Shown: piece by piece, positions 42,001 through 45,000 of the stretch
Position numbering within the stretch: position 1 is the first letter of the stretch
Layout of the letters: each line of letters opens with the position of its first letter
DNA from: a bacterium
GTDB taxonomy: Bacteria; Patescibacteriota; Dojkabacteria; SC72
Assembly: GCA_021463465.1 (NCBI GenBank)
Contig: JAJTYH010000002.1
Location: forward strand, 265,799 to 329,798
Length of the DNA stretch: 64,000 bases
Reading direction: 5' to 3'
Made by a program: the position numbers

Positions 42001-45000
42001 CCTCAGAACAAGAAGTGCTAATGCATACTGAAGGGCACTCGATTCATTAACAGGAAAGTATTCACACGCTTCTTTGGCAACCACGCCAAAGATACTTTAA
42101 ACAGTCAGTGTAAAGCAATTCAGTTTTTCGCCTTAGTAGATACGCTCGCATCTGTTCAGGAGTAACATCCTTAATCTCCTTTTCGTATCTCATTGATGCA
42201 CTTGAGGCAATCTTCCCCAGCTCTGCGTCGCCCTCACGTGGCTCTTTACCCTGACTAATTCTTAAATAATCATCAAAAGAAAAGCTCGGATCTAAATACC
42301 CTTTTTTAACCATCGAATCGTAGTAGTGACTTAAATCACCCCTCCTATCTCTAACTAAATTATTATAAAAGATGCTTCCAGACTGCGGTTGCGCTATTAC
42401 ATTGGCATATTTTCCCTCAGGATCATCTATTTGACATTTGGCTTCTTTATTTGATTGCTCAATAAAAAAGTCTTCATAACTAATTTCATGAAAAGGAATT
42501 GAACTACTTAACAAAGTCCTCTTCAGCGTTTCAATGTAAGTCTCAAAGTTCTTTTGTTTTTTCATTTTTTCAAAGTTCATAATGAAACTAACTTAATTTA
42601 ATAATTTAGGCCGAACGGGAATCGAACCCGTAACTAAAGTTTTGGAGACTTTTGTTTTACCATTCAAACTACCGGCCCAGGTCGGTTGTTCAAACAGAAA
42701 ACGTATTTAGAACAAATGACCTCTCTAATTGTTAGAGGGTCGCCATTGTTCAAAATTTAACATGACAGTCATTTTCTTAATCAATTAATTTATTAACTCC
42801 CATTAATTGCTTAAATCGCACAAGGTTTGTTTGAACAGCTTTTCTCGCCCTATCGGTACCTGCAACAAGTATTTCTTTTGCTTCATCTGGCCTTGATTCA
42901 TAATACTTTCTTTTTTCACGAATTGGTTCTAGGAAACTGTCTAGTGCTTTGAAAAGTTTCTCTTTAACTTCAACATCACCTACAGCCCCATTCTTATATC
43001 TTTCTTTCAAATCCTTAACTTCCTCTACATCCCTGTTGAAGTTATCGTGATAAATAAAGACAGGATTACCTTTTACAGAACCTTTATCAGTAGATTTGAG
43101 CCTATTTGGATCAGTGTACATCGACATAACTTTTTTCTTGAGTGTCTCGCTATCATCTGAAAGCAGGATAGCATTATGTCCACTCTTACTCATTTTTTCT
43201 TTCCCGTCAGTACCTACTAAACGAGCAACTCGTCCTACAAGCCCTTCTGGAAGTGTAAATAAGTTGCCGTATGCATTATTAAAGTCCCGAGCAATTTCCC
43301 TAGCTTGTTCAATTACTGGTAGCTGATCTTCTCCTACTGGAACAACCGATGCATTAAACTGAAGAATGTCTGCTGCTTGTAAGATCGGATAACAAACAAA
43401 ACCTAGAGTAGGATCTATCCCCTTATACCTTATTTCATCCTTTACACTAGGGTTTCTCATTGCCCTTGCATGTGTGACCATGGTTAAAAAATAGCTGTAA
43501 AACTCTAAAGTCTCAGGTACTCCTGACTCCAGATAAATTGTGGACTTCTCAGGGTCAATGCCTGCAGCTAAATTATCCAAAAATACATCGTAAACGTTCT
43601 GATTAATTACCTCTGATTTCTCATAATAGTTTGCATAGGCGTGAACATTGGCAAGCAAGATATAGGTTTCGTACTCATCTTGCATCTTAACTCTATTTTC
43701 CAAAGTACCTACAAAGTGACCGATGTGAAGTTTTCCACTTGGGGTATCACCAGTAAGTATAATTTTCTTAACGCCAGTCTGTCTTTTCTCATTTGCCACC
43801 GTGATATCAGCGATAACATAATTATCACCGATTAATTTGAACAGGTCCATTTTTGAAACCTTAAGAGCGTAACCATCCTTTGCAATTCCGCAGATAACAG
43901 ATTGCATCTCTTCAACTTTTCTATCAACCAAAATTGTTAACGAAAACCGCTCCTGCAACTCATCTAAAATCGCGGGCGAAACCAAGCCTTGTTCGAAGCC
44001 AAGTCGCTCTAAATCTTTATCTTCAACGAAATTCAGGCTTTTACTATTGGATAGTCTCTTAATCTCCTTATTGATTACATTGCGATCATCCCTTCTTAGA
44101 ACAACCACATACTGATTATATTCATTTCGAAAAATCAATGTAGACATCCCCTCTGAGTATTTCATCCCTGTAACTGAAACCAGATCATCAATTGACCGCG
44201 ATTTCGCCGCTGTCTGATCAATCTCCTGGTATGAGATTCCTAACTTTTTAAGTTTTTCAACTATTTTTTGGTATGTAATCACTGTTTTTATACTAAATTT
44301 AAACCAAAAATCCCCACACAGTTAATATACTATCTTTTAGTATACCAACTGTATGGGGACGATGTGGATCGTGGTACCACCCCGGTTCATGTATGTATTG
44401 CTACAAACACCTTCTACTGACTCCTAAGACATCAGTGTGAGTCTTGATTACGCTACTCTTGCGGATTCCCTACTAAGTATTTCCTTTCAGGTCTCAGCTC
44501 CAGGGCCCATTCTCCCCATCAATGCTTTTATTCTTAAATTGTAGTTGATTATACCATATACACCCTTTTCCTGTGATATACTCAAGAAATGGCCAAAAGG
44601 ATTCTCCGAAAAATTTGGGATATTTTCTCATACTTTTTAGCTATTGCTTTCGTAATCTCTGCCACAGTTGTCGCCTATTTCTACGCCAATGGTTACCGTT
44701 TCAACCCGATTAATGGTGAAGTCAGGCAAACTGGAGTCTTAAACATCGAAACCGTACCTAACAGAGCAGAAATCTTCATAAACGGTAAAGATGCCGGAAA
44801 ATCACCAAAAGTTAGTGCAGCAGATGCAGGTGAAGCCTTTGTAAAGATCACCAAAGAAGGATATTTTGACTGGGAAAAAGGTGTTCCTGTAGTTGCTGAA
44901 AAGTCCACCACTATACAGCCTGTACTTTTCCTTCAGAGCCCCCAAACTGAAAGTGTCTATAGCGCGAAAGGCAAAGTTATACAACAATTTCAAAGCACAT

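Follow-up and report, generated by a model that had tools for sequence, protein, structure and literature searches.

The stretch of DNA analysed here (hereafter the window) comprises 64,000 nucleotides (nt) of a genome assigned to the Dojkabacteria (assembly GCA_021463465.1, contig JAJTYH010000002.1, positions 265,799 to 329,798), and on its minus strand it carries trpS, the gene for tryptophanyl-tRNA synthetase (TrpRS), preceded by a T-box leader with an ultrashort Stem I. The gene product contains the Pfam domains PF04073 (residues 29-149) and PF00579 (residues 174-451), and matches the NCBIfam model TIGR00233 (trpS) at 262.6 bits, against a cut-off of 176.75. The proteins closest to it belong to Candidatus Dojkabacteria or candidate division WS6 (75-72% identity), followed by those of other Patescibacteria, and the host is an uncultured bacterium of the candidate phyla radiation (CPR).

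Inspection of the minus strand confirmed all elements of the leader at the coordinates given for them in an earlier note on this DNA, and a consensus scan likewise bore out the extended -10 element that the note had placed at the head of the T-box (Table 1). From 5' to 3' the order is promoter, 31-nt kink-turn (K-turn) hairpin (Stem I), Stem II, Stem IIA/B pseudoknot, linker hairpin, Stem III, antiterminator/terminator and the GTG start codon of trpS, which lies at 44282 and aligns with the Met start in homologous proteins. Transcription is predicted to start at ~44541, ~15 nt from Stem I, and TATGGTATAAT of the promoter region is kept in homologous leaders. The leader is a real feature, whose function we infer.

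Table 1 Positions of the trpS leader, its gene and related features in the window
Feature	Position	Strand	Description and basis
Promoter-like site	44548..44577	-	ATCACA, 18-nt spacer, TATAAT, with upstream TG (TGgTATAAT); consensus scan
Extended -10	44556..44548	-	TGGTATAAT; -10 hexamer at 44553..44548
Ultrashort Stem I	44496..44526	-	31 nt; AGC-AUU-GA-U-GGGG-AGAAUGGG-CCCU-G-GA-GCU; Infernal alignment and covariation
Specifier loop	44506..44513	-	AGAAUGGG: A, GAA, Trp codon UGG (44509..44507), purine G
Stem II with S-turn (loop E)	44464..44495	-	GAAA (44488..44485) facing AGUA (44474..44471); aligned to Rfam Stem II
Stem IIA/B pseudoknot	44439..44463	-	IIA CGC/GCG; loop GAGU pairs with ACUC (44442..44439)
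Linker hairpin	44416..44436	-	ACUGAU/GUCAGU, between pseudoknot and Stem III
Purine-rich AGAAG and Stem III	44389..44415	-	GUGU-U-UGUA/UACA-U-ACAU, loop GCAA; Rfam alignment and minimum free energy
Antiterminator	44383..44355	-	GGGG-[UGGUACC]-ACG-AUCCACAU-CGU-CCCC (ACGAU-CCAC-AUCGU); sequence and Infernal
Intrinsic terminator	44306..44358	-	Hairpin of ~21 base pairs (44358..44312), then A, then UUUUU (44310..44306); terminator scan
trpS	42777..44282	-	Regulated gene, 501 residues; N-terminal YbaK/INS-type editing-like domain
tRNA-Trp(CCA), A73	42606..42679	-	~100 nt 3' of trpS; ARAGORN and Rfam
Second tRNA-Trp(CCA), G73	28065..28139	+	CCA encoded
proS	51828..53537	-	T-box terminator reaches ~53551
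Second T-box, sub-threshold	53774..53596	-	5' of proS; RF00230 at 35.9 bits

Stem I and covariation among homologous leaders

The Rfam T-box model (RF00230) matches 44531..44352 over its full length (model positions 1-219) at 63.3 bits; the E-value is 1.9e-13 when the region is searched and 2.2e-11 when the window is. The Infernal aligner itself puts 4 nt in place of 72 Stem I positions of the model, while the K-turn base of Stem I is retained, as is all that follows from Stem II through the antiterminator, with a posterior near 1 across the antiterminator. The folding z-score of the leader is -6.1.

We compared this leader with those of six distinct Dojkabacteria trpS loci (L081, L083, L164, L166, L167 and L168), whose TrpRS proteins are 51-75% identical to that of the window; all six share its architecture, and unless otherwise stated the counts given below refer to these seven leaders. 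Two of the homologues match RF00230 at 59.6 (L081) and 42.9 bits (L083), both below the gathering score, and E-values for the Dojkabacteria leaders run from 1e-7 to 1e-13. The structure scored for covariation comprised Stem I, lower Stem II, IIA, the IIB pseudoknot, the linker hairpin and the antiterminator, Stem III being left out because its length differs among leaders. Across this structure, 96.6% of 238 cells pair and 15 of 34 pairs change on both sides. Shuffled alignments gave a mean of 8.0 +/- 1.5 such changes, and none of 500 reached 15, shuffle statistics on related sequences not being equivalent to probabilities; when the 3' partners were slid by 1-3 columns, 36-43% of cells paired and at most two pairs changed on both sides. 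These slid controls, together with the number of distinct pair types, make chance untenable. Both computational checks suggested in the earlier note therefore came out in its favour, as RF00230 scores the region and every scored helix is supported by the homologous leaders.

The note had further proposed a K-turn hairpin presenting UGG in its loop, and this hairpin is kept in all seven leaders. It consists of a C-stem (AGC/GCU), a 3-nt bulge (AUU), tandem G.A/A.G pairs, a U.G pair followed by GGGG/CCCU, and an 8-nt terminal loop, the sequence of which is invariant. All eight pairs of the hairpin are formed in 100% of cells and four of them are compensatory: the upper helix occurs as GGGG/CCCU, CGGG/CCCG, CGGG/UCCG, GAGG/CCUC, CUGG/CCAG and UGGG/CCCA, and the basal helix as AGC/GCU, UGC/GCA and UAC/GUA. 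The upper stem had been described as five base pairs (bp), a length that needs correction to four Watson-Crick or G-U pairs plus the conserved U.G. The K-turn, a prediction from sequence, has invariant G.A/A.G nucleotides and covarying flanking stems, and the minimum free energy (MFE) fold of the isolated 36 nt is exactly the Stem I hairpin in six of the seven leaders. The motif TGAT-N4-AGAATGGG-N4-GGAG has a single occurrence in the window and none in 100 shuffles. Other matches to AGAATGGG in the fetched loci were rejected as chance or coding sequence.

The specifier UGG is followed by a purine and agrees with both the trpS gene and the CCA anticodon of the two tRNA-Trp genes in the window, and no second UGG was found within any conserved loop of the seven leaders. 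A long Stem I with an AG bay and a distal loop (the elbow-stacking T-loops) is likewise not found, given that the strands of the proximal helix are just 8 nt apart. R1, a covariance model for which only the seven Dojkabacteria leaders were used, did, however, yield full-length matches 5' of trpS in a Dehalococcoidia metagenome-assembled genome (MAG; L017, 72.9 bits), in a Chloroflexota MAG (L011) and in several metagenome contigs. Six of these (L017, L011, L132, L113, L119 and L142) were rejected as ultrashort leaders, since with Rfam they score 99-109 bits and start ~70 nt earlier, and the 60 nt preceding the R1 matches proved to contain features of canonical T-boxes (AGUA strand, AG bay, distal loop). 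In four of them (L017, L011, L132 and L113), the Specifier Loop is internal and its 3' strand reads GAA-UGG-R, and R1 had aligned the hairpin region of the Dojkabacteria leaders to this loop. It could accordingly be argued that Stem I of the window is really long and canonical, the hairpin being its 3' half (with GAAUGGG as the 3' strand of the long stem), and that its specifier context was missed or lost by misassembly. We consider this extremely improbable. In the Dojkabacteria leaders both K-turn/proximal-helix strands (GC-NUU-GAU... and ...GGAGC) directly flank the 8-nt loop and covary; the conserved -10 box lies ~22 nt 5' of the hairpin and leaves no room for more, the ~15 nt between predicted start and Stem I being too few to accommodate the 5' half of a long one; the same structure is present in seven independent assemblies; and the Rfam alignment begins at the hairpin, as opposed to ~70 nt upstream in the canonical cases. 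The possibility was thus tested and not supported. Instead, canonical trpS T-boxes align to the leader outside the hairpin, and the hairpin therefore looks like a distally deleted canonical Trp Stem I. This suggests as ancestor a canonical Trp T-box with a Stem II, from which the part of Stem I between the proximal helix and GAA-UGG-R was deleted.

The elements that follow Stem I are also conserved. In the S-turn of Stem II, GAAA is invariant and AGUA nearly so, and two pairs of this stem change on both sides (36-65, A-U/C-G; 41-60, U.G/A-U). Stem IIA is 100% paired with two compensatory pairs, and IIB is 92.9% paired with three, occurring as GAGU/ACUC, AAAC/GUUU, GAAC/GUUC, ACAG/CUGU and others. 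The six pairs of the linker hairpin are formed in 97.6% of cells, three of them being compensatory.

Terminator, likely tRNA ligand and proposed mode of regulation

Covariation in both helices upholds the canonical antiterminator and mutually exclusive terminator described in the earlier note. The antiterminator has eight pairs, 100% paired, one of which is compensatory (G-C to A-U), and its T-box bulge (44379..44373) carries UGGU, complementary to A73-C-C-A, in six of the seven leaders and UGGC in the seventh (L166). The 5' strand of the terminator reuses the CCCC of the antiterminator, such that only one of the two folds can form at a time; its 15 scored pairs are 96.2% paired and six change on both sides, as against at most two when slid. 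The hairpin had been envisaged as an 11-bp helix extended by a separate inner helix; the competing hairpin and U-tract stand, but the two helices are in fact one, continuous over ~21 bp. In the window the terminator reaches -33.2 kcal/mol versus -7.4 for the antiterminator, and across all seven leaders the ranges are -26 to -33 and -7 to -10 kcal/mol respectively. T-boxes usually have a terminator far stabler than the antiterminator and so depend on ligand for readthrough. Only two hairpins in 40000..59999 reach 20 bp and precede a T run, namely the terminators of trpS and proS.

A potential alternative is that the same tRNA-sensing RNA acts post-transcriptionally, its 3' hairpin being a translational sequestrator or an element of stability or processing. 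All ultrashort T-boxes described earlier are translational, loss of the elbow contact is thought tolerable where no kinetic window is imposed, and in the window the start codon lies just ~24 nt past the U-tract. Nevertheless, we regard a post-transcriptional output as unlikely. A ~21-bp hairpin that is G+C-rich at its base, with at least five U directly 3' of it in all seven leaders, is a textbook intrinsic terminator. Additionally, neither the leader of the window nor, similarly, the homologous leaders have a Shine-Dalgarno-like sequence in or after the hairpin, and the hairpin does not overlap the start codon, its end lying 30 nt from the GTG in the window and at a similar distance in the other leaders. 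Relatives of canonical type that share the 3' domain are, moreover, ordinary terminator-type T-boxes. The form of the terminator, the lack of a Shine-Dalgarno-like sequence and the distance to the start codon together favour transcriptional over translational output.

The likely ligand is the tRNA-Trp encoded next to trpS; in the window it has a G1-U72 pair and its CCA is not encoded. The UGGU bulge is Watson-Crick complementary to A73-CCA, and the G73 of the second tRNA-Trp would give a U.G pair in its place. A tRNA-Trp with A73 adjoins trpS also in L081 (4105..4181) and L083 (4107..4183), CCA being encoded in both, and no tRNA adjoins trpS in L166, the leader in which the bulge reads UGGC. 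A73 is the archaeal/eukaryotic-type identity base of tRNA-Trp.

We think it probable that a T-box with an ultrashort decoding module controls trpS by transcription attenuation, sensing uncharged tRNA-Trp. This is how the earlier note read the locus, and the covariation and energies of terminator and antiterminator support it. The steps envisaged follow the mechanism established for T-boxes and the solved complexes of ileS ultrashort T-boxes with tRNA. The anticodon CCA of tRNA-Trp would pair with UGG in the loop, and the S-turn of Stem II, organised by the IIA/B pseudoknot, would dock and stabilise the codon-anticodon duplex, replacing the absent elbow contact. If the tRNA is uncharged, its 3' end (A73-CCA) would pair with UGGU and stabilise the antiterminator, allowing the polymerase to read into trpS; if it is charged, the terminator would form and transcription would stop within the U-tract, ~24 nt before the start codon.

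Several points weigh against this interpretation. According to a 2020 review, a long Stem I is generally required by transcriptional T-boxes, and its elbow-binding distal part is needed for fast co-transcriptional capture of tRNA; with the elbow contact absent, a transcriptional T-box may consequently be kinetically poor. The loop of the hairpin has one nucleotide where the canonical Specifier Loop carries the AGUA strand, and the canonical S-turn of Stem I therefore cannot form. With about a third of the model missing, the match to RF00230 does not reach the gathering score (93), and at Rfam gathering thresholds the window yields tRNAs only. When the whole leader or just its first 118 nt is folded by MFE, Stems I and II are missed in most sequences; the motifs of these stems are non-canonical, and support for them hence comes from covariation and not from energy. 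Moreover, the seven leaders are a small sample of one class, and it is from sequence that we infer tRNA binding, antitermination and the site at which transcription starts.

The regulated protein has a peculiarity of its own. Residues 1-175 of TrpRS, which include the PF04073 domain, also match the insertion domain of prolyl-tRNA synthetase (ProRS) and Cys-tRNA(Pro) deacylase weakly, and the fusion of PF04073 to TrpRS is common among the Patescibacteria TrpRS matches, some of which are ~672 residues long or carry an added PF03483. A literature search on fusions of TrpRS with editing-like domains found nothing. To our knowledge, no editing domain is known for TrpRS.

Reduced leaders beyond Dojkabacteria trpS

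Reduction of Stem I is not confined to trpS. The second T-box in the window, 5' of proS, has a Stem I (CAC-AUU-GA-A-AGGA-[GUCCCAC]-UCCU-G-GA-GUG) that is again of the ultrashort K-turn type, a UGGU bulge, and a 20-bp terminator followed by a U run, and the part after Stem I does not resemble canonical Stem II. In homologous proS leaders the hairpin persists and its helices covary (CCAU/AUGG in L170; UAGG/CCUA, with loop CUUCCUA, in L171), and a third proS homologue, L172, has no T-box. A Dojkabacteria-related contig (L173, 801..3331) carries two adjacent ProRS genes, one of the bacterial type with an INS editing domain and the other with a weak ProRS-C_1 match (archaeal/eukaryotic type).

Two further reduced leaders were found elsewhere. 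In the Patescibacteria MAG JBGSRK01 (L033, 65..229, minus strand), a 165-nt T-box, sub-threshold at 46.3 bits, precedes an open reading frame (ORF) that begins MKELPKHFDF and is probably valS-like. Its Stem I reads GC-GUAUAA-GUCAG-[CUAGUCA]-CUGAU-GA-GC, with GUC and then A in the loop; the 3' hairpin of this T-box, at 3-4 bp ahead of U7, is weak, and an AGGAG precedes the AUG by 8 nt. The other (L091, 619..831, plus strand, metagenome contig Ga0209121_10001067) is the only further ultrashort Trp leader among the R1 matches inspected, and presents the same loop, AGAAUGGG, in a 7-bp hairpin in which Watson-Crick pairs replace G.A/A.G. An additional hairpin precedes its Stem II, its terminator carries U7, and a further hairpin resembles the linker hairpin of the Dojkabacteria leaders; the canonical L017 has a different hairpin at the equivalent place. 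The TrpRS of L091 is without an editing domain and ~54% identical to Patescibacteria TrpRS, and a 54-codon ORF lies between its T-box and trpS. In the trpS, proS and L033 families alike, the expected codon (UGG; CCA or CCU; GUC) is followed by a single nucleotide of the loop. No T-box was detected at E < 0.01 in four other Patescibacteria trpS loci (L001, L002, L004 and L007).

These observations bear on whether the trpS leader might be a decayed T-box which, having lost distal Stem I, no longer usefully binds tRNA and has become a leaky constitutive attenuator. A platform that is essential in the transcriptional T-boxes studied to date is indeed absent, and the score lies below the Rfam threshold. 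However, leaders whose proteins are only 51-75% identical still conserve, or show covariation in, the specifier loop, the T-box bulge, the S-turn and the pseudoknot, and a terminator of -33 kcal/mol before what is apparently the trpS gene would presumably be costly if no signal for antitermination remained. The reduced design furthermore recurs on proS and in other lineages, with the matching codon each time. Decay is thus quite improbable in our view.

Regulation of trpS by attenuation through an ultrashort T-box may be one instance of a broader pattern. We would give about even chances to a CPR T-box class, present in Dojkabacteria and at least one other Patescibacteria lineage, that combines an ultrashort, terminal-loop Stem I with a terminator, serves Trp, Pro and probably Val, senses tRNA co-transcriptionally without elbow contact, and has, in the trpS case, a UGGU bulge tuned to an unusual A73 tRNA-Trp whose gene directly follows trpS. 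The Rfam gathering threshold, and the databases built on it, miss this design, and consequently T-box regulation in CPR genomes is probably under-counted.

One further structured-RNA match lies elsewhere in the window, at 58998..59115 on the minus strand, where the YrlA (Y RNA-like) model scores 37.4 bits against a gathering score of 69. It extends over two adjacent tRNA-Arg genes, and most likely reflects tRNA-likeness only.

Comparison with known T-box classes

In the current account of T-boxes, long Stem I and elbow contact go with transcriptional regulation, and ultrashort Stem I with translational regulation of ileS in Actinobacteria. According to a 2023 preprint, all ultrashort T-boxes regulate ileS and are translational, and in TBDB a truncated Stem I marks translational class II T-boxes. 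The ultrashort class of ileS leaders is reported from Mycobacterium smegmatis, M. tuberculosis and Nocardia farcinica (Sherwood, Grundy & Henkin 2015, as represented in the papers that cite it). Full-text literature searches combining T-box with Patescibacteria, CPR or individual CPR phyla returned nothing relevant. In the T-box literature examined, an ultrashort Stem I and a strong terminator are described only as separate features and not in one leader, and ultrashort forms are known there only for translational actinobacterial ileS, in agreement with the novelty that the earlier note had claimed for this amino acid and lineage.

The trpS leader would break the link between Stem I length and output in three ways, through its amino acid (Trp, with Pro and probably Val in related leaders), its CPR host and its terminator platform. 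If it works as drawn above, decoding by the Stem I loop, the Stem II S-turn and the pseudoknot would suffice, and elbow contact would be dispensable; the leader thus offers a natural test case for whether that contact is required for co-transcriptional sensing. It may additionally be of use in engineering, as a compact tRNA-responsive transcriptional switch of ~220 nt.

Among known systems, canonical trpS T-boxes (RF00230; L017 and L011) show the same order of elements from the GAA-UGG-R strand to the antiterminator/terminator, yet carry ~70 nt more and pass the gathering threshold at 99-109 bits, compared with 43-63 bits for the Dojkabacteria leaders. The glyQS-type leaders of Bacillus and Geobacillus are likewise naturally reduced transcriptional T-boxes that work by antitermination, but their reduction is the opposite one: glyQS lost Stem II and IIA/B and kept a long Stem I with its elbow platform.

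The closest likeness in form is to the ultrashort ileS class, whose solved representatives bind the anticodon via a K-turn Stem I, a Stem II S-turn and the IIA/B pseudoknot. Both have a K-turn hairpin as Stem I with the Specifier in its terminal loop and no distal elbow platform; in both, Stem II with its S-turn and IIA/B adjoin Stem I to form a decoding module of ~90-100 nt, and Stem III and the helix with the UGGN bulge follow. Three published features of the ileS class are nevertheless not found in the trpS leader. The platform of the ileS leaders is a Shine-Dalgarno sequestrator, whereas that of the trpS leader is an intrinsic terminator with a U-tract. Furthermore, the ileS class reads AUC and serves ileS in Actinobacteria, whereas the present leader reads UGG, serves trpS in CPR Dojkabacteria and has an extra linker hairpin. 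Since the leader aligns best to canonical Trp T-boxes, its reduction probably arose independently of, and convergently with, that of the ileS class, with which it was compared by description only.

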